64,000 bases of DNA from Armatimonadota bacterium (lineage in GTDB: Bacteria; Armatimonadota; SYMT01; JACQGL01), in NCBI GenBank assembly GCA_016199525.1, contig JACQGL010000048.1:630-64629 (forward strand), given 5' to 3'. Position numbers and translations under genes: made by a program. This document shows, piece by piece, positions 1 through 61,484 of the stretch (the stretch's first letter is position 1; each line of letters opens with the position of its first letter). Below the pieces are notes generated by a model. It did not search any database, was not told the DNA's origin, and was given only the letters and a program-made list of their open reading frames with translations.

Positions 1-1037
1 TCCCACTCGGCCAGCACCCAGTCGGTCTCCTCGTCCCGACCCTTGAGGTAGCGGATGGCAGTCTCCAGGTAGCGACGCTGGAGGTCCACCGCGGGGATGG
101 TCTGGCCATCCGCCCGGCGGGCGAGCCACTGCCAGGCAGGGTCCCGCGAGATCGATTTCAGGGTCTGAATCGGGTCCGCCAGGCGCACGTCCGCCGGCGC
201 CAGATCTTCTTCCACCAGATCCAGCACCAGGCAGGTGGTCCCGACCTTCAGCGCCGTGGCGTAGTCGCTCCGGTTGGCCTCGCCAAAGAGCAAGTGCAGC
301 CGATGGAGGTTGCTGAAGTTGTAGTAGCTATCCCACTTGGGGTTGATGATCGCGCGGTTGAAGCGGACCTTGGAGGCGACGGTCTTCAGGATGTGGTCTG
401 CCCGCTGGGAGAGCTGAAAATCGACCGTCTTGTCGATCTCCACGCCGTAGAAGTTGTGGACCCAGATGTAGTCCACCTCATGCTCCCCCAGCCGTACAAC
501 GTTATTACGAAAGTCCGTGCGGTTGAGGCGGTGGCCGCCTACGCGGCCGGCGCCCGCGAACAGCTGGCGGGTGACCAGGAACGGGAGCAGATAGCTAACG
601 GCGTCTTTGAAGAAATCCTCATCCAGCCGCGCCAGGTAGTTCTCGTGGCAGCCGAAGGTGTGCCCGCCGAAGTGGTCCACGCTGTTGTTGTGGAAGCTCA
701 CCCCCTGGGCGAGGCCCATGTCGTCGAGCGCTCTCTGAAGGAGGCGCAGGCCGGCGCGCTCGTGAGCGGCAATCTCGAAGATGCTGGAGCACTCCGCGGT
801 AGCGTATTCCTCGTGGCTGCCGACGGCATCAATGTAGAGGCGGCCGCCGTTCAGCAAGAACCCCCCCGCACGGGCGGGCTCAAAGGTGTAATCGCGGGCG
901 TGGAGGTCGATCACGCCCATGCGCTGCTGGCAGAAGACGTAGTTCTTCACGTCCTCCACCACTGTTTCGCTGGTGCCCGCCACCGGATCGCGCACCAGGC
1001 ATCCGAACTCGGTTTCAATCCCGAAGATGCGCTGCAT
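1..1037 (-). CDS. pafA: PafA-like Pup/UBact ligase, N-terminal ~345 aa; the gene runs off the window start
   Basis: Absent from the ORF track because it is truncated by the window edge. Hand translation from ATG at 1037 gives MQRIFGIETEFGCLVRDPVAGTSET. Near position 1 it reads ..EETDWVLAEW. It is paralogous to the Dop-like ORF at 3231-4754 (LGLETEYG, AETDGILAEW). It sits downstream of prcBA, as pafA does in Pup-proteasome loci. Confidence 0.85.
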   Translation of the reverse strand, partial: MQRIFGIETEFGCLVRDPVAGTSETVVEDVKNYVFCQQRMGVIDLHARDYTFEPARAGGFLLNGGRLYIDAVGSHEEYATAECSSIFEIAAHERAGLRLLQRALDDMGLAQGVSFHNNSVDHFGGHTFGCHENYLARLDEDFFKDAVSYLLPFLVTRQLFAGAGRVGGHRLNRTDFRNNVVRLGEHEVDYIWVHNFYGVEIDKTVDFQLSQRADHILKTVASKVRFNRAIINPKWDSYYNFSNLHRLHLLFGEANRSDYATALKVGTTCLVLDLVEEDLAPADVRLADPIQTLKSISRDPAWQWLARRADGQTIPAVDLQRRYLETAIRYLKGRDEETDWVLAEW

Positions 1038-1212
1038 CACGGCGCTATTACTCCACCTTGCGGGAGGGCCATTCCGGCCGGGAGGGCTTCAGGCATTCAG
1101 GTGTTGGATATTCAGGGAGTAGCCAGGCAAGTATTGAAGCCCGGAACGCCTGCCTCCCCTACCGATATAATTCTCCTTCGGCCGGTTTATTCCGGCCCGT
1201 AGATCGCGCCAC

Positions 1213-1989
1213 TTATTCCGCGCCCCGACGATAGTCGGCGACCGCAGGCTCCAGCTCGGCACGGGCGAGCAATCGAAACCGGCTCTCGCGGCGGGAGTGC
1301 CGCTCCAGCAGAGCCGCTTCCAGCGTGCCGGTTGCCAGGGCGTCCTGGAGCACCGCAGCGGCATCACTTGGGCGGGCCGCTTCCTCGTCATCAGGGGCCC
1401 GGCGGGCATGGAGGCGACCCACCGCCCAGGCCTCCAGCGCCAGCCGGAGAGCGGCTTCGCGGCGGGTAGCCTGGTCCACGTGCGCGTGGAGCAGCGCCAG
1501 CATCCGGTTTTCTGCTTCAGAGGCGCCCGCCGCCACGGCATAGAGCGTCTCGCGGCGAAACTCGCCGTCGTAGTTCAGGGTGAAGAACTGATCCGCAGCG
1601 GGAAAATCGCCCAGCTCCGCGAACAGCCCCCGGAACACGAACGGGGCGGAGAAGGGATCTGCGAACGCTCGCTTGATCGCGGGGCTGAGCACTGAGCCTA
1701 CCAGGCGATGGGCGGTCACATCGTCGGGGCTGCGCTGATAACCCTCCCGGTGCGCGAAGTCGATGGCCGCCATGCGCGCCGCTTCCAGGTCCGACTGGTT
1801 GCCAATGCCCCCAAACATCAGACGGTCGTAGATCTCGAAGAGCTTACGCTGGGTCCGGTGCACGGTCACCATCAGTACGCCGTCGGGCAGGCTGAGGGCT
1901 ACCACGGGGCTTCCGTCCCGGAGCCGCTCCTCGATGTAGTCCATCCGCTGCTGGACGGCCTGGTTCCAGTCATAAGGGGTGAATGCCAT
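1213..1989 (-). CDS. prcA: 20S proteasome alpha subunit
   Basis: 258 aa. MAFTPYDWNQAVQQRMDYIEERL..GSPVVAL..LFEIYDRLMFGGIGN is typical of bacterial PrcA. It lies directly downstream of the beta subunit. Confidence 0.9.
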   Translation of the reverse strand: MAFTPYDWNQAVQQRMDYIEERLRDGSPVVALSLPDGVLMVTVHRTQRKLFEIYDRLMFGGIGNQSDLEAARMAAIDFAHREGYQRSPDDVTAHRLVGSVLSPAIKRAFADPFSAPFVFRGLFAELGDFPAADQFFTLNYDGEFRRETLYAVAAGASEAENRMLALLHAHVDQATRREAALRLALEAWAVGRLHARRAPDDEEAARPSDAAAVLQDALATGTLEAALLERHSRRESRFRLLARAELEPAVADYRRGAE

Positions 1990-2079
1990 ACTGGTTTAGG
2001 GTTCTTGGTTCATCGTTTCAGGTCGGTGGTTGGCGAGGTCAGGCGATGTATATGGGTGTGTTCTTCGCCCTGCAGGCAG

Positions 2080-2099
2080 GCCCCGAAAGTGTTCGGGGC
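2080..2099. repeat. GC-clamped palindromic hairpin, CCCGAAAG..TTCGGG family (intergenic prcB-prcA)
   Basis: GCCCCGAAAGTGTTCGGGGC: an 8-bp stem with a 4-nt loop. Confidence 0.5.
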
Positions 2100-2137
2100 A
2101 GGCCATACGGCCCGTAGGGATGTCTGCGCTCCCTGCT

Positions 2138-2971
2138 CTACGCCTCACCCTCCGCCCTCCGCCTTCCACCCTCGGCTACCTCCGCCACGGCCTGGCGCAT
2201 CACGTCTATCCCGATATCCACAATCCCCTCGCGGGTGATCGCCCGTGCGATAGGCAGCACCTTGGTGAAGCCGCCGGTGGCGGCGTCCAGATCCGCGGCA
2301 ATATCCAGGAGGATCAGGCACTCCCGCAGGGCCTCGGCCAGCGTCATGGCGCGGAACGGCTTGCGGGTGCGAATGATGTAATCGAACGCGCCGCGGATCC
2401 GTTCCGACCCGGAGCCGGCGGCGCCGAACTCCGCCGTCTCGAAGCGCGCGCCCATCCCATCGTAGAAGAAGATACGCCCTTCGTTGGTCTTCGGATCGTA
2501 GGCGCTGGTGATCGGTAGGAAGGCCCCGATTCCCTGGAGCGCCATCGGCAGGTTTCCGGCGATCGCCCGCGAAACCTCGCTGATCTTCCCCTCCAGGCTC
2601 ATCTCCTGCATCTCGGTGCGTCGGTAGTACTTGAACGCGTGCTGAAGGTAGCGCGCAATCTCCATCCCCCGCGCGAACGAGCCGGAAATGGCCATCAGCG
2701 TGTAGTCATCGAGGGTGATCACCTTCTCGGCACGGTCGAACATCACCGCCATGTTGGCAGTGGCACGGCGGTCACCCAGGTTCAGGACGCCCTCGTTATA
2801 CTTGACGGCGATAACGGTGGTACCGTGTGTGTCCACCACCTCCCCCGCCGTCGGGGAAGATCCCGGGGGGAGTGACGGCACAAGATCGCCCACCAGGTCC
2901 GCAAAGCGCCGCGCCGACGGCGGCCACGGCAGACTTCTTCCGCCGGCTCTGTAATCCTGAATATCGTGCAT
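2138..2971 (-). CDS. prcB: 20S proteasome beta subunit with N-terminal propeptide
   Basis: 277 aa. About 55 aa of propeptide are followed by HG|TTVIAVKYNEGVLNLGDRRAT, giving an Ntn-hydrolase active-site Thr after autoprocessing. Confidence 0.9.
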   Translation of the reverse strand: MHDIQDYRAGGRSLPWPPSARRFADLVGDLVPSLPPGSSPTAGEVVDTHGTTVIAVKYNEGVLNLGDRRATANMAVMFDRAEKVITLDDYTLMAISGSFARGMEIARYLQHAFKYYRRTEMQEMSLEGKISEVSRAIAGNLPMALQGIGAFLPITSAYDPKTNEGRIFFYDGMGARFETAEFGAAGSGSERIRGAFDYIIRTRKPFRAMTLAEALRECLILLDIAADLDAATGGFTKVLPIARAITREGIVDIGIDVMRQAVAEVAEGGRRRAEGEA

Positions 2972-3055
2972 CGCGAAGAGGCTCCGTCGCCACGGGGCGC
3001 AGCGGCCGGGGCGCCATGCCCCGGCCGCGGTTAGAACAGGGCACGCCCGCGCGCA

Positions 3056-3244
3056 CTACTGGCCGCTACGCTGCCGGTAACGGCGCGCCTGGTCGGGATC
3101 TACCCGCCGCATGCGGCGCAGCAGATCGCTTGGGTCCGGCCGGCGGACGTCCGGAGGCTTCGGCCCGCCTTCATCGGCGGGCTTGGTCCACGGCTCGCGC
3201 GGCACCGGCCGCTGGGTCCGTTCTTCTCCTCTAATTTCCAGCAT
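3056..3244 (-). CDS. pup: Prokaryotic ubiquitin-like modifier of the Pup/UBact type, 62 aa
   Basis: Small ORF located between dop and prcB. It ends ..DPDQARRYRQRSGQ with a C-terminal Gln. GGAGGG lies 8 nt upstream of the ATG at 3244. The start overlaps the dop stop by 14 nt. It lacks the acidic character and GGQ end of actinobacterial Pup and matches my recollection of the UBact C-terminus (R-S/T-G-E/Q). Confidence 0.8.
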   Translation of the reverse strand: MLEIRGEERTQRPVPREPWTKPADEGGPKPPDVRRPDPSDLLRRMRRVDPDQARRYRQRSGQ

Positions 3245-4754
3245 CTTTTTTCCCTCCCCTCACCAGCTCGATCCACTCGGCCAGTGTCGCCGCTTCCGGC
3301 AGGCGACGGTTCAAATGGACGACCTTCCCATCCACCAGGGCGCGCAGATCCACCCAGTGCGTCCGCTCCTCAACGCGCAGACCGATCCGCCCCCACCCGA
3401 TCCGCTGAACGGCGGTCCCGAACCGTCGGACGCAATCCCCACGCACATAGGCGCGCGTATCCGCGGGTGGCTGCACCAGTGCGCTCTGGATGTCCGTTTC
3501 TTCGACCACGCGCCGCAGACGACCTTCTTCCACCAGGGCCGCGTGCAGGCCGTAATCGGGATCGATATTGTGGTACTCCAGGTCCAGGCTGCGCAGGAGC
3601 TCGCCCTCCCACGAAAGGTGCTCGGCCTCAAGATAAGTTTCCAACAAAACGCGCTTCGCCGCCCAATCGAGCCGATCCGCGGTGGACAGCGGATTGGCGT
3701 CAAGATCATCCAGCACCCGCGCCCACTCGGCCAGAATCCCATCCGTTTCCGCGTCCGCGCCCGCGAAGCAGCGGCGCGCCTCCGAGAGGTAGAGGCGCTG
3801 AAGATCGGTGGCGCGCATGGTGCGCCCGTCCTCTCGCTCCACCAGCCAGCGGTATTCGGGATCGCGCGACAGGCGACGGATGGCCTCTGTGGGCCGGCGC
3901 ACGCGGAAGAGCGGCTGCCACCCCAGCTCACACAACGCCAGCACCAGGGAAGTGCTGCCCACCTTCAGGGCGGTGGCAAACTCGGAAAGATTGGCGTCCC
4001 CGCAGATCACGTGCAGCCGCAGGTAACGCTGCGGATCGGCGTGCGGCTCGTCACGCGTGTTCAGGAGCGGCCGGCGATGGAGGGTGTCCACACTGGCCTC
4101 TTCGGTGAAGAAATCCGCCCGCTGGGAGAGCTGGTAGGGCGTTTCCGGCCAGGGGCCGTCCGTCTCGACTCCCACCTTGCCCGCGCCGGTAAAAATCGTA
4201 CGCGTCACGAAGAACGGCACGAGAGCAGCGTGGAGCCGTTCGAACGGGACGTCCCGCGGCACGAGGTAATCCTCGTGGCAGCCATAGGACATCCCGTGGA
4301 AATCCGTATTATTCTTGTAAATCTGGATGTGGGACCCGGTTTCCTGGCTGCGGCGGCGGGCGCAGGCGAGGACGATCCGCTCGCCCGCCCGGTCGTGCGC
4401 CACAAGGTCACGCAGCGTGAGGCACTCGGGCGTGGCATATTCGGGGTGGCCGTGATCGTTGTATAGTCGCGCGCCGTTGGTGAGCACCCGGTCGCTCCGC
4501 TGCTCCTCATGGGAAACGGCCGGCCGGCCGGGGTGATCGTAAAGTGCGTCCTGCGGATTGCTGGCCAGCTGGTCCACACGGAAACCGCGCAAGTCGCGGC
4601 GGGGGTCCTCGCAGCGGTAATCCCAGGGGCCGGCGCAGGTTCCCGCGTAGGCGCGCACCACGGCGCGGGCCTCGTCCAGCAGATCTGCGGCCCCCTTGCC
4701 TTCCACATGAATCCCGTATTCGGTTTCCAGGCCCAGTAAGCGCGCGGGAAACAT
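3231..4754 (-). CDS. dop: Dop-like deamidase/depupylase (Pup-ligase/deamidase family)
   Basis: 507 aa. MFPARLLGLETEYGIHVEG.., ..ARLYNDHGHPEYATPEC.. It lies immediately upstream of the modifier gene, as dop does in Mycobacterium. The Dop versus PafA assignment is by position only. Confidence 0.85.
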   Translation of the reverse strand: MFPARLLGLETEYGIHVEGKGAADLLDEARAVVRAYAGTCAGPWDYRCEDPRRDLRGFRVDQLASNPQDALYDHPGRPAVSHEEQRSDRVLTNGARLYNDHGHPEYATPECLTLRDLVAHDRAGERIVLACARRRSQETGSHIQIYKNNTDFHGMSYGCHEDYLVPRDVPFERLHAALVPFFVTRTIFTGAGKVGVETDGPWPETPYQLSQRADFFTEEASVDTLHRRPLLNTRDEPHADPQRYLRLHVICGDANLSEFATALKVGSTSLVLALCELGWQPLFRVRRPTEAIRRLSRDPEYRWLVEREDGRTMRATDLQRLYLSEARRCFAGADAETDGILAEWARVLDDLDANPLSTADRLDWAAKRVLLETYLEAEHLSWEGELLRSLDLEYHNIDPDYGLHAALVEEGRLRRVVEETDIQSALVQPPADTRAYVRGDCVRRFGTAVQRIGWGRIGLRVEERTHWVDLRALVDGKVVHLNRRLPEAATLAEWIELVRGGKKDAGN

Positions 4755-4794
4755 ACTCTTCAGGAACGCGGGCGGCCGACGGGCGCCCTACTGA

Positions 4795-4800
4795 AGTATA
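4795..4800 (-). promoter_or_regulatory. Candidate -10 element (TATACT) for dop-pup-prcBA
   Basis: Read on the minus strand: GGGCAGTATACTTCAG, about 40 nt upstream of the dop ATG, inside the 356-nt gap after the TPR gene. This is hexamer resemblance only. Confidence 0.25.
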
Positions 4801-5110
4801 CTGCCCGCGCATAGAGAACGCACGCAGAATGGGGAGGCCAGTGCCGCAAAGCACAAGCGAGCGACCAGGGGCTGGCAGCCTTATAGAGCGTCGGGATTGT
4901 GCGTGACAGGGCTGATCAGATCCATAACGGACCGCTTCCGGCGGGCGCCGTCCGCGAGGACTATTGGTGGCAAGTGTCCAGGCCCTCGTGTAGAGCTGCG
5001 GGGCCCTGGCAGCATGAGCGACGAAGGACGCGTGACCCCGCCGACGCAGGTCCCGTAGTCCGAGTTCCTAGCCTCGGACGTAGCAGGACGCCTGCTTGGT
5101 CGCTTAAGGT

Positions 5111-6142
5111 TCACGGCACTGCCTGGTTCAGCTTGCGCTGCGCCCTTACCTTTGCTTCCTCGTCGTTCAGTGTCAGTACCCTTGCCCACAACTCTCGCGC
5201 CCCGGTAGTGTCACCGGCTTCATCCAGAGCTGCGCCCAGCTCATAACAATACTCGCCATTCTCGGGATCAAGCTCGACGGCTTTTCGTAATTCGGAGAGC
5301 GCCTCCTCTACCTGACCCTTGTCCTTCAGCAGCCGCCCAAGCCTGTAGTGTGGTAGTTCCCTGAAGTACCCGAAGTACTCTATGCACTCACTCGGCTCCA
5401 GAATGATCTCTTCGTCCGGGATAGCAATAGCCGAACGATAGGCTGCCATTGCCTCGTCCTTGCGCTGGGCATCCTCCAGGGCCTCACCCAAGTTGTAGTA
5501 TGCATGAAAATGGGTAGGGTCCAAACGGATCGCCTCACGGTAGGCCGCTATCGCTTCGTTCAGCTCGCCGGCATCATGATAGGCGCCACCGAGGTTGAGG
5601 TACCAGTCTGGATTGGAAGGGTCCAGTTGAACGGCCTCACGGTGTTCCGCAATCGCCTCCTCGAAATGGCCTGACTGCCTGAGAGCAAGACCCAGACGAT
5701 GATGCGTCCAGGGATCGGCTGGATCAGCACGAACCATCTCCCGGAATACAACGATAGCCTCACCAAGCTTGCCCGCTTTTTCCAATGCCCAACCCAGTTG
5801 GAGTAGTAATTCTGGTTTATCGGGATTAAGTCTAATCGCTTCCCGATACTCACGCACTGCGTCCTCTAGTTGGCCGCTTTCGGAGAGAGCAAAACCAATT
5901 CGAAGATGGCCCAGCTCCAGCTCCGGTTGGTCAGGATCAAGCTTGATTGCTTTGCGATACTCGTCGAGTGCCTCCTCACGGCGATCGACTACATACAGAA
6001 TGTTAGCAAGTCGAATGTGGGCCAGTGCCAGCTCCGGTTTCAAACGACTGGCCTCCTGTAGCTCGGTGATCGCCTCCACCAGCCGATTCTCTTCCATCAA
6101 GTCGGCGGCGCGTCTCAAGTACTCATCATAGGGATCGGTCAT
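5111..6142 (-). CDS. Tetratricopeptide-repeat (TPR) protein
   Basis: 343 aa built of tandem ~34-aa repeats (..EEAIxxYREAIRLDPxxxxAxxNLGxAL..). GC content is visibly lower than in its neighbours. Confidence 0.85.
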   Translation of the reverse strand: MTDPYDEYLRRAADLMEENRLVEAITELQEASRLKPELALAHIRLANILYVVDRREEALDEYRKAIKLDPDQPELELGHLRIGFALSESGQLEDAVREYREAIRLNPDKPELLLQLGWALEKAGKLGEAIVVFREMVRADPADPWTHHRLGLALRQSGHFEEAIAEHREAVQLDPSNPDWYLNLGGAYHDAGELNEAIAAYREAIRLDPTHFHAYYNLGEALEDAQRKDEAMAAYRSAIAIPDEEIILEPSECIEYFGYFRELPHYRLGRLLKDKGQVEEALSELRKAVELDPENGEYCYELGAALDEAGDTTGARELWARVLTLNDEEAKVRAQRKLNQAVP

Positions 6143-6169
6143 AGTTATAAAACATAGCCGCTTTGCAGG

Positions 6170-6455
6170 CTACATCGATACATACTGCGGACCCAATGCG
6201 CTGCGCCGCCTCTGTAAGCCTGGCGCTTGTACGGTTTGCAGCTGGGTATCAACCAAACGCCACAACAGCCCGCCTGGGGCCCAGCGCTGGGTCTGCTGAT
6301 AAACCGTCTCCCAGGGCGGTCCCGAAAGCTTTCGGGATGCGGCATCATCCTCCAGGAGGCGCCTCCTCGCGGACGAGGGCCAGATACGGGGCCACAAAAG
6401 CCCACTCTTCGTTACTTACATCACTCGGGTGAGGTTTACGGGTCAGTTTCGGCAT
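6170..6455 (-). pseudogene. Truncated and frameshifted IS5-family transposase remnant (DUF4096-type N-terminus only)
   Basis: Hand translation from ATG at 6455 gives MPKLTRKPHPSDVSNEEWAFVAPYLALVREEAPPGG*. A second frame then reads ..SGPPWETVYQQTQRWAPGGLLWRL... These are the conserved N-terminal motifs of IS5/IS4-like DDE transposases. The DDE catalytic domain is missing. Confidence 0.6.
6320..6337. repeat. Perfect 18-nt palindrome of the same family (inside the IS remnant)
   Basis: TCCCGAAAGCTTTCGGGA. The 17-mer CCCGAAAGCTTTCGGGA recurs exactly at 55239-55255. Confidence 0.5.
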
Positions 6456-6750
6456 GCCCACATACTACCATCCCGAACCCAGAGTTCATAACACCCTTCA
6501 GGGCGTGGCTCAGGGCAGCTTCTGACTCCTGCACTCTGTCTAAGTAGCAGCTCAAAAGTCCTCGCAGGCGGCTGGCCCGCCCGTAGGCGCGACCGGCCGC
6601 AAAGACTTCTGACCACCTACTTAGTGCACGTAGCCTGAACCCGGGCTGTGTATCATCGTCGAGGAACTGGAGGACTTCGGGGGTTATCATCGGCGACGGC
6701 TAAGGTGATCGTAACACACGGCCCCGGCCGCGGTACTGCTGCCAAGACGG

Positions 6751-8496
6751 CTACACCACTCCCCGGCGGGGGTTTGGGCCGGAGCGATCTGCGCGGATCG
6801 GCCGCACAGTTACCACGTTCTCCGGCTCGTAATCCAGCAGCTTCAGCCAGTCCTCCTGGGTATCGGACTTAGGGAAGATCTCGTTCTCTTTGTACTCCAG
6901 CCGGATGGCACGCTGGAGGTCCTCCAGGCTAACCCCTTCCTCCAGGTTGCCGGTGTCTATCGCCCGGCGAATAGCCAGGTCCTTGGCACGCTCCACCACG
7001 GACATCAGCAGCGCCCCCGAGGTGAGGTTCCGCCAGTAGAGCCGCTCCACACTGCCGTTGCGCAGGTGCACCTCCACGAACTCTGTTTCCTCCTCGCGCC
7101 GCCAGAGGTAGCGGATCGCCTCCTCGATCAGGGCCTCCCGCGCCGCCTCGGGGCCGCCGTGCTTGCGGACGGCAGCGGCATCCAGGGGGATCTGCGGGTG
7201 CAGGTAGATGCCCAGGATTTCTTTGCTGGCCCTCCGGTCCGGCCGCCCCACCTTTGCCTTGCGATCGATCCGCCCCGGCCGGAGGATGGCAGGGTCGATA
7301 TAGTCCGGGCGGTTGGAGGTGAGCAGCACGACGACGTTCTCCAGGGAAACCAGGCCGTCCATCTCCGCCGCGAACTGGGGCACCACGGTGTTGGAGATAT
7401 TCAGCCACCGGCCGGAGCTGCGCGTCCGCAGCAAAGATTCCGCCTCGTCGATAAACACGAAGACGAGGTAGCCTTCGCGCGCCTTCTCGCGCGCCTGGGC
7501 AAAGATCTCCCGCACCATGCGCTCGCTTTCTCCGAGCCACATGTTGAGGATCTTCGGGCCGCTGATGTACATGAAGTACTCTTTAACCTCGCGGCCGTGG
7601 CGCTGACCATACTCGCGCGTGAGGTTGTAAGCGGTCGCCTTGCCGATCAGCGTCTTACCGCAGCCCGGGGGACCGTAGAGAAGGATCCCTTTGAGCGGCT
7701 TCTTTTCGAAGCGGGCGTAGAGTTCGGGGTGCAGCAGAGGGAGCTCGATGGTATCCCGAATCAGCTGGATGACCTCTTCCTGGCCGCCCACCTTCTCCCA
7801 GGGGATGTCGGGCACTTCCTCCAGGTAGTAATTGCGGATTTCTCGCTGCGGGAAGTGCTCCAGCGCCACGCGGAAGCAGGGATCCATCCGTATCTCGTCC
7901 GCCACTTTGAGAGGGGTATCGGCCAGATCGGCGCTGCGCACCACCACCCGGCCGCTCTGCCCCATTGCATCCAGAGAGACGCGCAGTCGCCCACCCTCCA
8001 GGAGCTCGGCAATCTTGACGATGGGGCCCTGCGTGGCATAGCCCAGGTCCCCGACAATGGCGTAGGCGTCGTTCAGCTTGATGCGCGTACCCACCTTGAG
8101 GGAAGCGGCGTTCAGCTTGGGGTCGATATTACTGATGAATTCCACATCCCCCAGCGCGACGCTGGCGACGCTCTCTTCTAGCAGCCCAAGGAACGTGCCC
8201 ACGCGGTTGGCCGGCGAGGTGAGTTTCTGGTAAGCTTCCTCATATTCGGCGATCAGCTTTTGCGCTTCCTGAAACTGCCGCTCGTCCACCTCCAGCTGGT
8301 GGCGTAGCAGCAACAGGTACTGGCGCACCCGCGGGTCTTCGTTGGTGGCAGATTGAAGAATGCGATCCAGCAGGCTGAGCGCGCGGAAGGCGGTCTCCGG
8401 ACCACGGGGGCCCGCCTCATCTTCCTGCCACCAGGCGCTGTGGCGCTCTTCACGGGGATCGCGCGGCTCGTGGTAGCGATCATCTCGCTTGGACAC
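6751..8496 (-). CDS. mpa: Proteasome-associated AAA+ ATPase (Mpa/ARC)
   Basis: 581 aa with a GTG start. It has an N-terminal coiled coil (QFQEAQKLIAEYEEAYQKL), an OB-like region and Walker A GPPGCGKTLIGKA, followed by ..FIDEAESL.. and ..SNRPDYIDPAILRPGRIDRK. Confidence 0.9.
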   Translation of the reverse strand: MSKRDDRYHEPRDPREERHSAWWQEDEAGPRGPETAFRALSLLDRILQSATNEDPRVRQYLLLLRHQLEVDERQFQEAQKLIAEYEEAYQKLTSPANRVGTFLGLLEESVASVALGDVEFISNIDPKLNAASLKVGTRIKLNDAYAIVGDLGYATQGPIVKIAELLEGGRLRVSLDAMGQSGRVVVRSADLADTPLKVADEIRMDPCFRVALEHFPQREIRNYYLEEVPDIPWEKVGGQEEVIQLIRDTIELPLLHPELYARFEKKPLKGILLYGPPGCGKTLIGKATAYNLTREYGQRHGREVKEYFMYISGPKILNMWLGESERMVREIFAQAREKAREGYLVFVFIDEAESLLRTRSSGRWLNISNTVVPQFAAEMDGLVSLENVVVLLTSNRPDYIDPAILRPGRIDRKAKVGRPDRRASKEILGIYLHPQIPLDAAAVRKHGGPEAAREALIEEAIRYLWRREEETEFVEVHLRNGSVERLYWRNLTSGALLMSVVERAKDLAIRRAIDTGNLEEGVSLEDLQRAIRLEYKENEIFPKSDTQEDWLKLLDYEPENVVTVRPIRADRSGPNPRRGVV

Positions 8497-8610
8497 GGGA
8501 CTCTCCAGGCAATAAACAAAAACGGCCTACCGTAGAGGCCATGCAGTCTACCAGCATTATCCCTCGGGCGGCGCGCGGCGTCAACCGGGGGTGAGGGGGG
8601 AGCATCCACC

Positions 8611-15756: not shown

Positions 15757-16512
15757 TCAGCGGACCACGAACGTCGGATTGCGGCGCCACTCGTTATCCT
15801 CATAGGAGCGCCAGGTCTGTTCTGGTTTCCTCCAGGCCGCGTGGCCATCCGCATAGGCGATGTTGCCGCCTCCCTGATGCCGTGGCAGGAAGCGAGCTTG
15901 CTGCCGATAGTCTGGCAGAGCAGCGTCATCAAAGGCCCACGGCTGGGGATACAGCCCGCCGCGCGATGGCAGGCCGCTGGCGCGTCCTGCATCGCCGATG
16001 AGGATGAATCGCGCCGGATAGGTGATGCTGCCCAGCTTGGTCGTTTCGTTGAACCCGAAGTCAGGATTAGCTTGATACCACGCCTGCGCATTGGCTCCGG
16101 GTAGATTCGCCTCGTTGTGGTTGTTGCCGTAATCTGTCGTGAACCACATACGCGGGCCAGCCGGAGGCCAGGCGGGTGCAGAAGGGCACTTGAAGATATT
16201 CAGTTCATGGATGTAGGGCCACAGCTTCGTCTTGTAGCTATACGGAGCGCGGGCCTCATAGGTGTCGGGCGTGCCGGGTGGGGCTGTTCGCTCCGTTACA
16301 TGGGGCGGGAACGTCTCGTCGTTGTCCTGGAGATACATCATGTAGGCCGTGCCCAGATGCCGCACGTTTGAAAGACAGGCCGTCTTCCGGCCGGCCTCAC
16401 GAGCCTGGGCGAACACAGGAAACAGGATCCCCACCAGAATGGCGATGATCGCTATCACCACGAGCAGTTCGACCAGGGTGAACCCCTTTGCATGTGAATA
16501 GTTTGGATGCAC
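15757..16512 (-). CDS. Prepilin-type N-terminal cleavage/methylation domain protein, DUF1559 family
   Basis: Start re-set to GTG 16512 (GAGAGGAG 7-8 nt upstream): VHPNYSHAKGFTLVELLVVIAIIAILVGILFPVFAQAREAGRKTACLSNVRHLG. This is the class III signal/methylation motif. The C-terminus ..HQGGGNIAYADGHAAW is typical of DUF1559. Confidence 0.85.
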   Translation of the reverse strand: MHPNYSHAKGFTLVELLVVIAIIAILVGILFPVFAQAREAGRKTACLSNVRHLGTAYMMYLQDNDETFPPHVTERTAPPGTPDTYEARAPYSYKTKLWPYIHELNIFKCPSAPAWPPAGPRMWFTTDYGNNHNEANLPGANAQAWYQANPDFGFNETTKLGSITYPARFILIGDAGRASGLPSRGGLYPQPWAFDDAALPDYRQQARFLPRHQGGGNIAYADGHAAWRKPEQTWRSYEDNEWRRNPTFVVR

Positions 16513-16767
16513 CGATTTTCTCCTCTCTTGAAACGCATCCTCTGTGAAGTCGACGATGGGCCTGGCAAAACGACCCCCGGCCGCGGGCCCTGCCGGGGGT
16601 CGCCGCAACAGATGCATGAACTCCAGGTTCGTATTCCGGTCCAGCAGAGCCGCAGCGCTGCGGAAAAGTGGAAGCCAGCCATCAGGCATCTCCAAACACA
16701 GCGAGGCCCCGCATCCTCCGGACGCAGGGCCTCTCGTTGACGAGTCAGCCGTACCTGTCAAATCCCC

Positions 16768-35488: not shown

Positions 35489-37375
35489 TTATTGTGGACG
35501 GAAGGTAACACCCGGCCCGGTCGGCGGCGGCCAGAGAATGAACAGGTCGAAATTGACGAAGAACCAGAGACCATCCCCAGGCTGAAGCCGGGCTGTCCGG
35601 GAGAGCCGTATGTAGCCCAGTCCGGGCTGGTTCGGGTCGAAACGCCAGATACTGGATCGGATCCATCCGACGCGCAGCGCCGTGTCGAAATCGACCATCT
35701 GCCCGGTGCTCTGCCGGACAACTTTCAGATCCTGGAGGTTTACGGGCCAGGGGCTCGCATTGCCCATCTGGTTCCAGCCGGGGCTTGCGCTTGTAGAGAA
35801 CACCTCGCCTGGGGGAATGTCCACTGGCGTGGCATCCTGAAGTTCCACCACACGCCCCGTGGCGCCCAGCAACCGCACCCAGAAGCTCTCCCCGGGCCGC
35901 ACATGCTCGAGCTCGCGATACATCAGGCCCTCTGGGTCCCAGCGAACGGCCTGGAAGCTGTCGGCATCCAGGCCGAGCGCCACTTCCGGAGTGTCATCTA
36001 CGAACGAATAGGGGATGGTAATCATCCGATACACGTTCTGCAGGAAAACACGGTCCTCGTGAGGGATGACCACGTTCCGATTAACCTGCACCGGCCCTGG
36101 GCTGAGGATCACACTCACTTGCTGATCGCCGTAGGCGACCCCGGTGGGTCTAAGCAGCCAGTCCGTCGTTCGCTCGAAGACCCCCTGGCCAGCAGGATCC
36201 AGGTCCCCCAGGGGCACGAGCAATTCCTGGGGCTCCGGCAACTCAACGAGCTCCAATATAGGCACCGGGGGTAAGGGAGCCACCCGCGGCAGCTGTGGCA
36301 GCTCGAGCATCGCCTCTACGTCCTGGATAGAAAGATCCGACCGCAGGTTGGTTGCCCAGGTATCCAACCGGAACCCGTCCGGCGTCGCCCGCCCATCAGT
36401 GAGCGGCAGCACCGAGAGCGCCTGCACCGAGCCGAGGATGTCCGTGCTCCGGCTATGGTCCGCTACGCCCGCCCCCAGGTAGGTTACGAATGTGCGCCTT
36501 TGTCCGCTGAGGAAATTGCGGGGAAGCCAGTAAAGGCCCACCGAGCCATTGCCTCCCGCCGCCTCCGGCAGGAGCAAGCTCTGCCCCGGGTTGGGTGTGA
36601 AGTCCCAATCGGGCAACGGCCCTACCCCAGTGCCGGTACCGCCGATGAGCGGGGTATAGCCACCGAACACCAGGCGATCCGGCGGCGTTGTATCCAGCCC
36701 GCGCAAGACATTCTGGACGAACGAGTACGGGCTCGGATCTGGAAAGAAGGCAAACCACTGGTCCGGGATAAACCCGCGCGTGAACTCACGCTCGCGGGAG
36801 ATGAGCCCCACCTCCGGCACCAGGAACGGGTTGGTTACCAGATTGTTACTGTCGGCGGCAGGATCGAACGCCACTCGCAGGCCGATCACGCGCCGTGCAC
36901 CCTGGTTAAGAACCTGGTACTCCAGCCGAACCAGGTCCCGCACCAGAGTCAACCTCTGGATGACGAGGATATTGATCCCCTCTGAATTCTCAGTATCCTC
37001 AGGGAAGCGCCAGCTGGAAACGACAGACTGGCCATCGGGGGTGACGGTCGGTGGAAGGACAACGGTGCCCCCACTCCCTCCGAAGATACCCGTACTCGCC
37101 CCCCCCTCCTCTGCGATAGACTCCACCCAGAGCGTGACCTTGTTAGCGGTGAAGTCCGCCCGAGTAATCAAGAGGGAGTCATCCCGCGTTTCCAGCGGAT
37201 CGCCTTCCACCCGGACAATCTGCCAGCGGTGATCGCTATCTTGCACGGTGGCTTTGATGTAGCCGTTCTGAATCACCTTGGTCTGGGCGGACGCCGGGTA
37301 GGCGGCCAGACAGCCCCAGGCAACCGCGATCCAGAGAGCCGCCCGCCAGGTGCGGCCGGAGCCGGTGCGTCTCAT
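35489..37375 (-). CDS. Large secreted hypothetical protein (628 aa)
   Basis: Start re-set to ATG 37375: MRRTGSGRTWRAALWIAVAWGCLAAYPASAQ signal peptide. The mature part looks beta-rich. No family recognised. Confidence 0.65.
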   Translation of the reverse strand: MRRTGSGRTWRAALWIAVAWGCLAAYPASAQTKVIQNGYIKATVQDSDHRWQIVRVEGDPLETRDDSLLITRADFTANKVTLWVESIAEEGGASTGIFGGSGGTVVLPPTVTPDGQSVVSSWRFPEDTENSEGINILVIQRLTLVRDLVRLEYQVLNQGARRVIGLRVAFDPAADSNNLVTNPFLVPEVGLISREREFTRGFIPDQWFAFFPDPSPYSFVQNVLRGLDTTPPDRLVFGGYTPLIGGTGTGVGPLPDWDFTPNPGQSLLLPEAAGGNGSVGLYWLPRNFLSGQRRTFVTYLGAGVADHSRSTDILGSVQALSVLPLTDGRATPDGFRLDTWATNLRSDLSIQDVEAMLELPQLPRVAPLPPVPILELVELPEPQELLVPLGDLDPAGQGVFERTTDWLLRPTGVAYGDQQVSVILSPGPVQVNRNVVIPHEDRVFLQNVYRMITIPYSFVDDTPEVALGLDADSFQAVRWDPEGLMYRELEHVRPGESFWVRLLGATGRVVELQDATPVDIPPGEVFSTSASPGWNQMGNASPWPVNLQDLKVVRQSTGQMVDFDTALRVGWIRSSIWRFDPNQPGLGYIRLSRTARLQPGDGLWFFVNFDLFILWPPPTGPGVTFRPQ

Positions 37376-37788
37376 CTCCACTGCGTTCTCCCTGGTCAGA
37401 AGGATCATTTCGAGGTCCCACCCGTCGGGAAAGCCGGATGCCAGACGCCGCCGCATGGCAGTCCGCACCGGCATATTCACCCCCGGGCCGACCGCCCCTT
37501 CCCGGGTCGACGTCGGAACGATCCGGATGCAGGTCTTACCGGCTCGTTTGACCTCTGGGTTAAGCGAGCCATTGCGCTTCGGCACCACCAGACAACTGTT
37601 CCTGAAGGTCGCGCCGTTGTTCCTCCTCCACTCCGCCACAGGCAGGCCTGCTGGCAGCTACCGGGGTGGCAACCGCCAGCCACGCACCCACCATTACCCA
37701 CCGGGTTCGGCGCTCACCGAACTTCACCGCGGTGGAACTGCTTCTCGCCCCAGGGGCCGCTCGTCGCCGCGGGTGTTCGATCGCCGTG

Positions 37789-39819
37789 CTAGTTCTTCCG
37801 GCCCCCTCTGCCCGAGCGACCTGCACCACGGGGAGGCGGAGGCGGCCCAAACAGGGAATTTCGCACCTGCACCGGAGCGCTGAAGACGAAGCCGTTCGGC
37901 CCCGGCGCCAGCCGATCATCCCTGCTGCGTACCCCCACCGCCAGGAAGATGAACTCGTCGGTGCGGAGCTTGCCTCTTAGGGCATCCACACTGGTGAACG
38001 CCTCCTCGTCCGGCCCACCCAGATCGGGCGGCAGAACGTTCTTCGTGGCCGCGATAATCGTGCTGGCTGAGTTGAAATCAACTTCCCGACTCACCGCCAG
38101 AGCGTATTCGTTGCCGCCCGCCACGGTGGTGAAGTCGACCGTAAGATCAGCGAGATCCACATCCGTAGGTGGCACCGTGTTCGTGGGGCTGGTGATCTCC
38201 GGCGCCGGCAGGAAGGTAGCCAACGGCGATGCCGAAGAGAGAGGCCCCATTAGATCCTCGGGATCCGGTGTGCCATCGCCATTCAGGTCCTGCTCGAAAT
38301 GCCACGCCGTGGCCACCTGATAGCGGTACTTCTGGCCCGCGATAAGACCAGGGACATCCTCCACATCCTCACGATCCCCCGCAAGGTTGGTGAAGTCGGG
38401 CGGGCGAAACGCGGTGCCCGGCGTGCCGTTGAAGGCGCCGACCACCGTATGCACCGTGGTTTCGGTGTCATCGAAGCGGTGCAGGCCATCCCCATTCACC
38501 GCGCCCACGACCTGGACGGCCCCCAGACCTCCGGGGTTGGACCGCCAGATAACGTATTGAAGCACCTGCTCGCTGAGAACCTGGCGCGGCCTTTTCCAGG
38601 TGACGCGAATGCCAGTCGGGCTCCCTGGGGCCAGCTGGACCGCCTGTGCTTCGGTGCCGAAGGCAGTAGTCCCGCCCTTCGACCCGCCGCCGAGCGCCAG
38701 CAATCCGACAAGCAGCGCGCCGCCGACGAGCAGCTTGAGGGCGGATTTGCCAATGCCCCCGCCGCCCCCGCCGCCGCTCGCAGGCTCCTCCACCACCACT
38801 GGGGGAGAGCCACCCGGCTGTCCGCTCTGGCTGTTCGCGGCCAGCACAGCTTCGCCCGGATCCTCCTCACTGGCCACCAGTGCCTCGATCTGCCTGCCCC
38901 TGGCGGACAGCCGTACCTTCTCCGGGGGCAGGACATTCGATCCCCGCCGGGACTCTTCACGAGGCGGAGGGAAATCCCGGAAGCTGAAAATGGCGCGTAC
39001 CCTGTCCTCGGGTCGAACGCCGCGGTAGTTCTCTACAATCCGCCCGCTGGTGGTATCAGCGTCCACGCTGGTGGCCCGCACGCGGCCCACCAGCTCACCC
39101 AGGCGCAGGACGATGAACTCCATGCCTCGCCGGACGCCCTGCCGGATGCCCACGTTCATAAAGGCGACTTGCTCGTTCTCACCCACCACGCTGGTATTGA
39201 GGATCGTTCCGGTCGGTAGACGGAACCGATCCATCTGCTCGCGCGCCCGGAAGGCCGCCCGTGCCAGCGCTTCCTCGAGGAGCACATCCGCGTCTCCCGT
39301 GAAGCCCACGCGCGGCTGACTTTGTCCGAGGCCGACGGCGCCATTCATCAGCACGCCGTTCCGGACGTCCTCGACCACTACCCGAAGGCGGACGAACGCT
39401 TGCGCAGGGTTCGCGGTCACCCGCGCCTCTTCGATGGTCCCGTACACTACCCCGATGGCGCTGAGGCCAGCGGCAATCTGCGAGCGGGCCACCCGGTCAA
39501 ACGGGGGTCGGATCCCCAGTGCCTGGATCCGGCCATGCACTTGGTCGTCCGAGACAACCTCCCAGTTTCCAGAATCGAGCAGCGCCAGGGCCACCTGCGC
39601 GCTGGCCGTGCGTCCCAACAACGTACCGCCCAGCGGCGTGTTGTTGTTGAAGTCGAGCATGTAGACACGCGGCGTGGCAAGCGCCGAAACGATGTCGGCG
39701 GGACCGGCCTGGGCCTCGGCCCTCCGGATGCCAATCCCGGCGAAGGTGGAGAGAGTCATAGCCAGGACCAGGAGCCGCGCCACCCAGCGGCTCGCACGGT
39801 GATGGCGGATGCGCTTCAC
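37789..39819 (-). CDS. Multidomain envelope protein: signal/anchor, LpoB/CsgG-like domain, small beta-barrel domain, Gly-rich segment, TM helix, Fn3-like C-terminal region
   Basis: Start re-set to GTG 39819 (GGAGGA 6 nt upstream): VKRIRHHRASRWVARLLVLAMTLSTFAGIGI. It contains ..VYMLDFNNNTP..LLDSGNWEVV..AIGVVYGTIEE.., then GGGGGGGIGKSALKLLVGGALLVGLLALGGG, then ..IRVTWKRP..VLQYVIWRS.. Confidence 0.7.
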   Translation of the reverse strand: MKRIRHHRASRWVARLLVLAMTLSTFAGIGIRRAEAQAGPADIVSALATPRVYMLDFNNNTPLGGTLLGRTASAQVALALLDSGNWEVVSDDQVHGRIQALGIRPPFDRVARSQIAAGLSAIGVVYGTIEEARVTANPAQAFVRLRVVVEDVRNGVLMNGAVGLGQSQPRVGFTGDADVLLEEALARAAFRAREQMDRFRLPTGTILNTSVVGENEQVAFMNVGIRQGVRRGMEFIVLRLGELVGRVRATSVDADTTSGRIVENYRGVRPEDRVRAIFSFRDFPPPREESRRGSNVLPPEKVRLSARGRQIEALVASEEDPGEAVLAANSQSGQPGGSPPVVVEEPASGGGGGGGIGKSALKLLVGGALLVGLLALGGGSKGGTTAFGTEAQAVQLAPGSPTGIRVTWKRPRQVLSEQVLQYVIWRSNPGGLGAVQVVGAVNGDGLHRFDDTETTVHTVVGAFNGTPGTAFRPPDFTNLAGDREDVEDVPGLIAGQKYRYQVATAWHFEQDLNGDGTPDPEDLMGPLSSASPLATFLPAPEITSPTNTVPPTDVDLADLTVDFTTVAGGNEYALAVSREVDFNSASTIIAATKNVLPPDLGGPDEEAFTSVDALRGKLRTDEFIFLAVGVRSRDDRLAPGPNGFVFSAPVQVRNSLFGPPPPPRGAGRSGRGGRKN

Positions 39820-40029
39820 GATAGGTCCTCCGTCTCGAAAGCGATGGGGAATACGGGCTAGACACGTTCGTCCGACGCGGGCGCTGTCCCCGCGAGGCCG
39901 CATATGCGGCGGAATCGTGCCGCCCGCCTGAAAGGTACGAGCACAGCGCCCTGGCCTCGCATCGTTTAAGGGTCAGGTTATCGAGTATCGTCTCTCGCCG
40001 ACCATTCAGGCGCCGGGACGCCTTGCTGG

Positions 40030-56822: not shown

Positions 56823-57257
56823 TCAGCGGCGATCCGGCTGCGCCACCTCGGTCGGCAGCGCGATATTCACCAGCCCTGCCTGCTTTGCCGCGTCCATCAC
56901 CTGGACCACGCGCTCCCACACCACACTGCGATCCGCGCGCACGATCACCTGGTCCACCGGGGTCTCCCGGTGCATCGCCTTGAGCGTGCCCGCCAGGTCT
57001 CGCACCGCGATCCGGTTGCCGTTCAGCAGCACGTGCCCGCTCGGTTGGACAACGATATCGACGTCCTGCTTCTTCTGGAGCGGCTCGGCGGCCTTGGCGG
57101 TGGGCAGGTTGACGTTCAACGCATTTGATACGCCCACGAACGAGGCGCTGACCATAAAGATGATCATCAGCACCAGCACCACGTCCGTGAACGGCGTGAT
57201 GTTGATCTCCGCCATCACGGAGTGGCGCCGCTTCTTTCCGCCGTGGGAGATCATCAT
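56823..57257 (-). CDS. exbD: ExbD/TolR-family biopolymer transport protein
   Basis: 144 aa. ..AEINITPFTDVVLVLMIIFMV.. has a single TM helix and is followed by a periplasmic domain. Confidence 0.85.
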   Translation of the reverse strand: MMISHGGKKRRHSVMAEINITPFTDVVLVLMIIFMVSASFVGVSNALNVNLPTAKAAEPLQKKQDVDIVVQPSGHVLLNGNRIAVRDLAGTLKAMHRETPVDQVIVRADRSVVWERVVQVMDAAKQAGLVNIALPTEVAQPDRR

Positions 57258-57868
57258 ACCGTCGCCTCCTGGTCCGTCATCAGGTGCAGCACCTCGGTGC
57301 TCACCACCTCAAAGTCCACATCGAACCGGTTCACCCAGGTGGTGAACAGGTTGTAGGCGACCACGGCTACGATGGCCACCCCGAGACCTGCGGCGGTGTT
57401 AATGAGCGCTTCCGAAATGCCGCGCGAGACCTGGCCTGGGTTGGCGCCGGTCATTGCGGCGATCTCCTGGAAGGCATGCATGATCCCGATCACTGTGCCG
57501 AACAGGCCGATGAACGGGGCCGTGGTGGCGATCGTGCCAATCAACGGCAGGTTGCGGGTCAGGCTGGCCTGCTGCAGGGTGATGGCGCTGGCCAGCGTGT
57601 CCTTGATCTCCTCCTTGCCGCGTCCTTGCTTCGCCAGCGCCGCCCCGGCCACGGAAGCGATGGCGGATTGGCTGCGATCACAGAACGACATCGCGTCCCC
57701 CAGCCGCCCTTCCTGCATCAGCCGCGCCAGCCGCGCCAGGAAGATGATCGTATCCGTACTGGCTGCTTTCAGGCGGATGTAGCGCTCGATAATGATCGCC
57801 ACCATAGTGATGGAGACGGCCAGCAGGATGTACATCGTAAAGCCGCCCTGGTTCAGGATTGCGAACAT
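57254..57868 (-). CDS. exbB: ExbB/TolQ/MotA-family proton channel protein
   Basis: 204 aa. ..LIGTIATTAPFIGLFGTVIGIMHAF.. ..ISEALINTAAGLGVAIVAVVAYN... There is a 4-nt overlap with exbD. Confidence 0.85.
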   Translation of the reverse strand: MFAILNQGGFTMYILLAVSITMVAIIIERYIRLKAASTDTIIFLARLARLMQEGRLGDAMSFCDRSQSAIASVAGAALAKQGRGKEEIKDTLASAITLQQASLTRNLPLIGTIATTAPFIGLFGTVIGIMHAFQEIAAMTGANPGQVSRGISEALINTAAGLGVAIVAVVAYNLFTTWVNRFDVDFEVVSTEVLHLMTDQEATV

Positions 57869-61106: not shown

Positions 61107-61484
61107 GGCTCGTCTTCCAATCTCGACGACCGGGCCGCTGGCAGCGACACTACTGCTACCAGCACAAGTGAGCGCCCGAATCATTGCTGGCCGCTACAGC
61201 GGTCGCTTCGGCGCATGCCAGTACGGATGTCGGACGAGCGCGAGCTGGTATCCAACCTAAACTGGCACCGGCCCGCACCTGCGAACGCCGTTGCCCTGTC
61301 TGGAGTTTGGGAAGTGAGGACAAAGAGCAACCGCCCATCACCAAAATCCAGCTCCACTGCTCACAGGGTCCGGCTCTGGTGTGAGCCGGCACGACAGCCC
61401 GGGGTCGGCGGGCCTCTGCGAACAGCCGATTTCTGAATCAGATCCGGGCGTCGCCCGCGGCGAACACTCTGGGAGGAGGTTAGC

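Follow-up and report, generated by a model that had tools for sequence, protein, structure and literature searches.

A UBact-Proteasome Locus in an Armatimonadota Bacterium, a Probable Non-Actinobacterial Counterpart of the Pup-Proteasome System

Introduction

The ubiquitin-like bacterial modifier UBact was reportedly named in 2017 by Lehmann, Udasin, Livneh and Ciechanover, whose list of phyla is said to include Armatimonadetes, with Poribacteria and Acetothermia reportedly among the candidate divisions listed in the same paper. Here, we describe a gene cluster of this type, with an Mpa/ARC-like AAA+ ATPase, a Dop-like enzyme, a UBact modifier, two 20S proteasome subunits and a PafA-like paralogue, in a 64-kb stretch of contig JACQGL010000048.1 from an Armatimonadota bacterium, the whole stretch analysed being referred to as the window. 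Small tags of 50–90 amino acids (aa) with a C-terminal G-[EQ] had been described outside Actinobacteria, in phyla that include Nitrospirae and Verrucomicrobia, by Iyer, Burroughs and Aravind in 2008; a PafA-family gene always adjoins these tags, and three proteasome genes are as a rule linked to them (PMC2588565). The presence of Dop and PafA homologues in Armatimonadetes was noted by Hecht et al. in 2020 (PMC7947786).

The reactions that Dop and PafA catalyse and the docking of Mpa to the 20S core have been established in mycobacteria (PMC7947786, PMC8223512, PMC8755798, PMC12288473). In mycobacterial Mpa, the C-terminal GQYL is essential to open the proteasome, and binding depends mainly on its penultimate Tyr (PMC12288473, PMC8223512, PMC8755798).

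Results

Gene Content and Conservation of the Locus

The gene cluster is read here as the UBact-proteasome locus of an Armatimonadota bacterium and as the equivalent of the Pup-proteasome system outside Actinobacteria, a reading to which we give a probability of about 80% and in which the reaction scheme would follow by homology. All six system genes lie on the minus strand within positions 1–8496 at the coordinates that the initial annotation had given, and the six-frame open reading frame (ORF) list of the window and the family profile searches agree on them. The order of the genes matches the actinobacterial locus, in line with the Pup-proteasome-type layout first proposed. The cluster appears intact, in that every system ORF inside the window is full-length and keeps its catalytic motifs, with the PafA-like gene represented by its first 345 codons only. 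Identical proteins are found in GenBank as MBI3909811–16 from an Armatimonadota metagenome-assembled genome (MAG), on a contig of 65,973 bp, the Dop-like protein, UBact, the beta and alpha subunits and the ATPase being exact matches.

A total of 491 candidate stretches were found to encode a Dop-like relative (one genome per species), and the best 80 loci were compared, 43 of them from Armatimonadota, 24 from Poribacteria, two from Bipolaricaulia/Acetothermia and 11 from unlabelled MAGs. The order ATPase, Dop-like enzyme, UBact, beta, alpha and second Pup-ligase-family paralogue recurs throughout these related loci. In the comparison of neighbourhoods that the initial annotation had proposed, the tag proved to be conserved beside dop and prcB, with a UBact ORF immediately following the Dop-like gene in 76 of the 80 loci, and the four loci that lack it are contigs ending within ~600 nt of Dop.

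The UBact Modifier

The modifier gene (3056–3244, minus strand) encodes a protein of 62 aa with an isoelectric point (pI) of 11.0, and its ORF overlaps the stop of the Dop-like gene by 14 nt. The product scored above the cutoffs of both family models, with 73.4 bits to PF20513 (cutoff 27.8) and 72.7 bits to NF033388 (cutoff 35), which bears out its initial assignment to the UBact type. It is also identical to MBI3909813.1, which the Prokaryotic Genome Annotation Pipeline (PGAP) names 'ubiquitin-like protein UBact'. All 26 aligned orthologues match PF20513, and a profile search gave 3,324 UBact clusters, every match listed being already tagged PF20513.

The C-terminus of the UBact encoded in the window is ...RYRQRSGQ, the Gln form. 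An ending of R-[ST]-G-[EQ] was observed in all 76 orthologues (RSGE in 32, RTGE in 27 and RSGQ in 17), so terminal Glu is present in 59/76 and terminal Gln in 17/76, the copy in the window being among the latter. The C-terminal half is almost invariant and follows the pattern RPD..LL.RM.RVDP..A.RYRQR[ST]G[EQ]. By homology of the enzymes to those of mycobacteria, conjugation of UBact to substrate lysines is proposed. The initial annotation had also held UBact to be experimentally unexplored, and in the open-access literature searched, subscription-only papers being outside its scope, the bioinformatic paper of 2017 was cited but nothing on the biochemistry of UBact turned up.

The Dop-Like Enzyme, the 20S Core and the ATPase

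The gene upstream of the modifier (3231–4754, minus strand) encodes a Dop-like protein of 507 aa, a putative deamidase and de-tagging enzyme, which matches the Pup_ligase family PF03136 with 531 bits. The Dop model TIGR03688 is the best-scoring one with 457.2 bits, against 355.9 bits for the PafA model TIGR03686, and the comparison with solved structures in the PDB gave 399 bits for Dop and 230 bits for PafA. The GhExE motif lies at residues 8–13, and the catalytic Asp is found within LYNDHGHPEYATPE, where Asp-His and Pro occupy the Dop positions (PMC7947786, Table 1); one discriminating position is PafA-like, with Ala for Ser102. The spacing from GhExE to the Asp ranges from 92 to 98 residues in the first paralogue and is 64 residues in the second, suggesting an insert of Dop-loop length that is found only in the first. 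Furthermore, the residue after SQRAD is of the Dop type (Phe/Tyr) in 72 of 72 Dop-like orthologues.

The beta subunit of the 20S proteasome (2138–2971, minus strand; 277 aa) was recognised by TIGR03690 (E = 2.7e-40) and carries a 50-aa propeptide that ends in ...DTHG/TTVIAV, the slash marking the site at which the propeptide is predicted to be cleaved. Thr51 corresponds to Thr1, and Asp17 and Lys33 are in place. The protein aligns with PrcB of Rhodococcus and of Mycobacterium tuberculosis (Mtb), and the solved mature chains begin at query residue 51, so that the propeptide and HG/TTV site of the initial annotation agree with the alignment at Thr1, a Thr that is predicted to be processable. The alpha subunit (1213–1989, minus strand; 258 aa; TIGR03691, E = 4.7e-23) matches PrcA in the PDB with 51 bits (E = 1.4e-12) and is highly divergent, with 81.8 bits to TIGR03691 (cutoff 139) and 19.7 bits to Pfam Proteasome (cutoff 22.4). 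Its pocket Lys is kept, Lys49 being aligned with K52 of Mtb PrcA and conserved in the relatives. In the PGAP annotation, the beta subunit MBI3909812.1, which bears Thr1, is named 'proteasome subunit alpha', and MBI3909811.1, which is the actual alpha subunit, is entered as '20S proteasome subunit A/B', a naming error that we attribute to the divergence of these subunits from the actinobacterial models.

The Mpa/ARC-like proteasomal AAA+ ATPase (6751–8496, minus strand; 581 aa) contains the Pfam domains AAA, Prot_ATP_ID_OB_N and Prot_ATP_ID_OB_C, and its best NCBIfam model is TIGR03689 ('pup_AAA', E = 6.5e-137). The protein is laid out as an N-terminal coiled coil, two OB domains, an AAA module and a C-terminal beta-grasp region, with GPPGCGKT as Walker A and W-L-G as the aromatic-hydrophobic-glycine (Ar-Hb-Gly) pore loop. 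The W-L-G pore loop together with the Walker A and B motifs was observed in 61 of 63 ATPase sequences. The alignment to the Mtb Mpa structures 5kwa and 7px9 reaches 334–339 bits and extends through query residue 573 of 581.

Departures from the Actinobacterial System

Several observations weigh against reading the locus as a counterpart of the Pup-proteasome system. Five of the six system proteins, all but the tag, fall under the NCBIfam actinobacterial equivalog cutoffs, with the ATPase at 457.3 against 504.75 bits (TIGR03689), the Dop-like protein at 457.2 against 492.3 bits (TIGR03688) and the beta subunit at 138.5 against 191.9 bits (TIGR03690). The tag in turn could not be related to Pup: hhalign of UBact against Mtb Pup, the latter sequence being entered by hand, gave a probability of 1% and E = 0.054, with nothing significant, and the Pfam Pup model matched none of the 26 UBact orthologues at E ≤ 10 and did not match the ORF of the window at E ≤ 0.01. 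The two can be aligned only at the terminal G-[EQ] and over a 'DLL' stretch. UBact is strongly basic, with a net charge of +5 in the window copy and, in each of the 77 sequences, a charge of +4 to +7 in the 30 C-terminal residues, whereas Mtb Pup (the same hand-entered sequence) has a net charge of −12, a pI of 4.05 and about −9 over its last 30 residues. This dissimilarity and the opposite charge imply that tag recognition is not simply transferable from the Pup structures, and every mechanistic step for UBact is one that we infer by homology with the mycobacterial system.

The ligase is the next point of departure. The PafA-like paralogue, the presumed UBact ligase, runs off the edge of the window (1–1037, minus strand), and its first 345 codons match PF03136 with 290 bits, TIGR03686 (PafA) with 204.7 bits and TIGR03688 (Dop) with 184.7 bits. 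It has no Dop-loop, and LYIDAVGSHEEYATAE carries the VGS insertion and the ATA triplet; the PafA-specific motif D-A-VGS-H...ATA is found in the Armatimonadota second paralogues at the positions tabulated for these enzymes (PMC7947786, Table 1). A full-length second paralogue, 78% identical to the fragment in the window, is available from the closest relative, L001 (L001:14462–15937). In the PDB this protein is nearer to solved Dop (257 bits) than to PafA (194.5 bits), and in NCBIfam its preference for PafA is marginal (319.7 against 300.3 bits for Dop, with a PafA cutoff of 551.3 bits), both scores being far under the cutoffs. The second paralogue also has an insertion of 21–40 aa between GRVG and QLSQRAD, and in Armatimonadota it reads PKWDSYYN where both actinobacterial enzymes have TRDEPHAD.

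These features, together with the Poribacteria second paralogues, which show the Dop-like DMGHLEYATPEC motif and have no VGS insertion, would also be expected if the two Pup-ligase-family paralogues were not split as Dop and PafA at all, having arisen by an independent duplication or the second being no ligase. We regard this reading as improbable. The residue after SQRAD is His, of the PafA type, in 55 of 56 second-paralogue orthologues and never so in the 72 first paralogues, the Dop-loop-length insert is confined to the latter, and the gene positions of the two paralogues mirror those of actinobacterial dop and pafA; in addition, the Gln form of UBact in 17 of 76 genomes needs a deamidase plus a separate ligase. 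The assignment of the second paralogue as the ligase nevertheless draws on these local motifs and on synteny, not on global similarity, and is not secure.

The third point concerns the tail of the ATPase. Its C-terminus is ...PNPRRGVV (6751–6783), with neither GQYL nor a penultimate Tyr, and past the last aligned residue only eight residues follow, against 16 in Mtb Mpa. The tail of the orthologues from Armatimonadota, Poribacteria and Bipolaricaulia has the form basic-x-[IV]-[IVL], without Tyr, in 60 of 61 sequences, and the 50%-identity representatives of related ATPases fall into two distinct tail classes, GQYL/GHYL and aliphatic. Since GQYL and its Tyr are called essential and the main binding determinant in mycobacteria, the tagging might be real and the hand-over to the 20S core non-canonical, for example mainly through beta-grasp contacts, through an adaptor or by docking without gate opening, or else tagging might be largely regulatory; the very divergent alpha subunit, with its 51 bits to PrcA, would fit such a hand-over as well. 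We consider this unlikely, albeit the least unlikely of the alternatives weighed in these Results. In most loci the ATPase gene is closely linked to the 20S genes, as would be expected of functional partners. The Lys of the alpha pocket that binds the activator's C-terminal carboxylate is conserved, and the very conservation of the aliphatic tail suggests a functional docking element.

Two unusual loci were also noted. One, L082 (CAZODS010000004.1, 2252–9307), contains two proteasome genes, an Mpa-like ATPase with a ...DNII tail and two Pup_ligase genes, followed by an acidic Pup-like ORF of 69 aa (EIDDILDDIEDVLDE...) that ends in KKDAQ, and its second ligase ends in ...KEKGGQ, a Pup-like C-terminus. 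A simple rule by which the tail type of the ATPase follows the tag type is ruled out by this locus, where a ...NII tail accompanies an acidic Pup-like ORF. The other, L081 (JACPKE010000019.1, 2942–8132), has an Mpa-like ATPase with a GHYL tail, followed by two Pup_ligase genes, and within the 10.7 kb read it showed no proteasome genes and no small ORF ending in G-[EQ]. UBact loci that are nearly Armatimonadota-like were moreover found in MAGs labelled Acetothermia/Bipolaricaulia, with Dop-like proteins 55–57% identical to that of the window, and in one labelled Chloroherpetonaceae (L006, L033, P0286); horizontal transfer or mis-binning could account for these.

Insertion between the ATPase Gene and dop

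The gap between the Mpa-like and Dop-like genes is 1,996 bp in the window, compared with a median of ~60–70 bp in the relatives. The initial annotation had placed a TPR gene and an insertion sequence (IS) remnant in it. The TPR gene is real (5111–6142, minus strand; 343 aa, seven TPR repeats in Pfam), with a G+C content at third codon positions (GC3) of 0.59 against 0.79–0.87 in the neighbouring genes. The evidence for the IS remnant is weak: a probable degenerate and frameshifted N-terminal fragment of an IS4/IS5-family transposase (DUF4096-like, ~6200–6455, minus strand) reaches E = 6.7e-5 and 23.5 bits to DUF4096, under the Pfam cutoff of 34.3, in a hand-spliced frameshifted translation only, and as single ORF pieces this DUF4096 region attains E = 0.022 at best in Pfam. 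The TPR gene and the DUF4096-like fragment are flanked by a 20-nt inverted repeat with 85% complementarity (4947–4966 and 6553–6572), which could be what is left of the terminal repeats of an IS or a product of chance and was not counted as evidence for a mobile element.

None of the 80 related loci has a TPR homologue between the Mpa and Dop genes, and the DNA of 4755–6750 matches none of them. Unrelated cargo is present at the same junction in nine of 62 relatives, in the form of SDR, MsrA, nitrilase-like and small HEPN-like genes (L013, L023, L026, L027, L028, L029, L041, L049 and L050, with the HEPN-like gene occurring twice in L026). Because it is absent from the relatives and other cargo occupies the same junction, the TPR gene with the IS-like fragment is, judging by the loci compared, an insertion specific to this lineage, made at a site where insertions recur, and has no predicted role in the system. 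On the same grounds, the TPR gene was ruled out as a conserved accessory.

An IS-associated insertion of 2 kb might have uncoupled the ATPase gene and left a decaying, non-functional locus, as the widened gap, the degenerate transposase fragment at the junction and the closest relative, L001, in which no Mpa gene lies within 10 kb upstream of dop, would suggest. We judge this very improbable, with the system ORFs in the window full-length and intact in their catalytic motifs, their GC3 of 0.79–0.87 typical of the coding sequence of the genome, and unrelated cargo at the junction tolerated by the nine relatives; the TPR gene, moreover, has the same orientation as its neighbours, so that read-through transcription would still be possible.

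Host Genome and Neighbouring Genes

The G+C content of ~65% and the actinobacterial-type gene order might be taken to indicate a Pup locus of the usual actinobacterial kind, carried on a contig that is mis-binned or chimeric, a reading to which we give next to no credence. PolA, encoded in the same 64-kb window (42953–45646), has best named relatives that are 50–63% identical and almost exclusively Armatimonadota MAGs, the best 80 Dop-like relatives are from Armatimonadota, Poribacteria, Bipolaricaulia or unlabelled MAGs, and the tag matches UBact, not Pup; by these three lines the actinobacterial reading is refuted. The base composition is also uniform along the window, and DUF1559/prepilin and ExbBD genes are present. 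The GenBank label, the PolA matches and the nearest related loci all point to Armatimonadota, in agreement with the non-actinobacterial genome first suspected. The context genes named at that stage were all recovered, namely a gene with DUF1559 and a prepilin N-methyl motif (15757–16761), ExbB/ExbD (56823–57868), a gene for a large TPR protein of 1012 aa (58146–61184), and polA, rpsA and clpC.

A sigma-70-like promoter match (TTGACG-17-GATAAT, 10 of 12 positions; 8556–8584, minus strand) lies ~60 nt upstream of the ATPase start and might be the operon promoter. It is not distinguishable from chance, with one match in 9 kb against a shuffle mean of 1.5, and the counts in the promoter and terminator scan were no higher than in shuffled sequence. 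A terminator-like hairpin with a T-run follows the promoter match, both lying within the ~90 nt upstream of the ATPase start (8522–8584, minus strand), and the two could form a leader or attenuator. Elsewhere in the window, two adjoining large ORFs on the minus strand, 35489–37639 (716 aa) and 37789–39903 (704 aa), have a coding-like GC3 of 0.76–0.77 and stand next to a hydantoinase B/oxoprolinase gene; they have no Pfam or NCBIfam match and no similarity to each other.

Discussion

By homology, the six products could act in a single pathway. UBact would be made with a C-terminal Gln (...RSGQ), which the Dop-like enzyme would deamidate to Glu, and the PafA-like paralogue would then activate the gamma-carboxylate with ATP and join it to lysines of the substrate through an isopeptide bond. 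The tag would be captured by the N-terminal coiled coil of the Mpa-like AAA+ hexamer, the W-L-G pore loops of the hexamer would thread and unfold the substrate, and the unfolded chain would pass into the Thr1-type 20S core of beta and alpha subunits to be degraded there. The Dop-like enzyme may also remove the tag.

It is possible, though we hold it as a tentative and somewhat doubtful view, that UBact-type systems are a variant of the Pup-proteasome system with a mechanism of their own, with other chemistry for tag recognition and for ATPase-20S docking or gating. A charge-inverted, Arg-rich tag would need an ATPase coiled coil and a ligase groove that had evolved along with it, and a short aliphatic tail without the penultimate aromatic of GQYL and of the HbYX motif would, if true, imply a different way of docking to the 20S core or of opening its gate. 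The question that follows is how a proteasomal ATPase might bind to its 20S core when it lacks the penultimate aromatic that is regarded as indispensable in mycobacteria, archaea and eukaryotes. The Tyr-less aliphatic tail, the basic tag and the atypical second ligase paralogue thus offer hypotheses for the study of UBact, which is widespread, with its 3,324 protein clusters and its conserved loci in Armatimonadota, Poribacteria and Bipolaricaulia. As a discovery, the locus carries little weight, the type of system, its presence in Armatimonadetes and the identity of the ORF being already on record. It is known in kind and annotated in this very instance, since UBact was described in 2017, has curated models in Pfam and NCBIfam and is the name that PGAP gives to the ORF.

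Compared with the UBact system of 2017 (BBRC 483:946), the locus is the same in kind, sharing the tag models, the R-[ST]-G-[EQ] end, two Pup-ligase-family genes, the Mpa-like ATPase and the 20S genes, and the copy in the window differs in the 2-kb insertion of a TPR gene and IS remnant between the ATPase gene and dop. The 2008 survey took the tags to be Pup orthologues and did not list Armatimonadota; the versions that it describes from planctomycetes and deltaproteobacteria, unlike the locus studied here, lack the proteasome linkage (PMC2588565). With the actinobacterial Pup system, the locus shares the gene order (Mpa/ARC, Dop, Pup, PrcB, PrcA, PafA) and the same six protein families, yet its tag is not detectably homologous to Pup. 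The beta-subunit residues Thr1, Asp17 and Lys33, the alpha pocket Lys, the Ar-Hb-Gly loop, the OB and beta-grasp layout, most of the positions that discriminate Dop from PafA, and a tag C-terminus of G-[EQ] with Gln forms needing deamidation are common to both. Unlike Pup, which is acidic and disordered and ends in GG[QE], the tag in the window is basic and ends in SGQ, and the system further differs in the aliphatic [IV][IVL] tail of its ATPase, ~8 residues shorter, in its divergent alpha subunit, and in a second ligase-family paralogue with an insertion of 21–40 aa and, in Armatimonadota, an altered TRDEPHAD motif.

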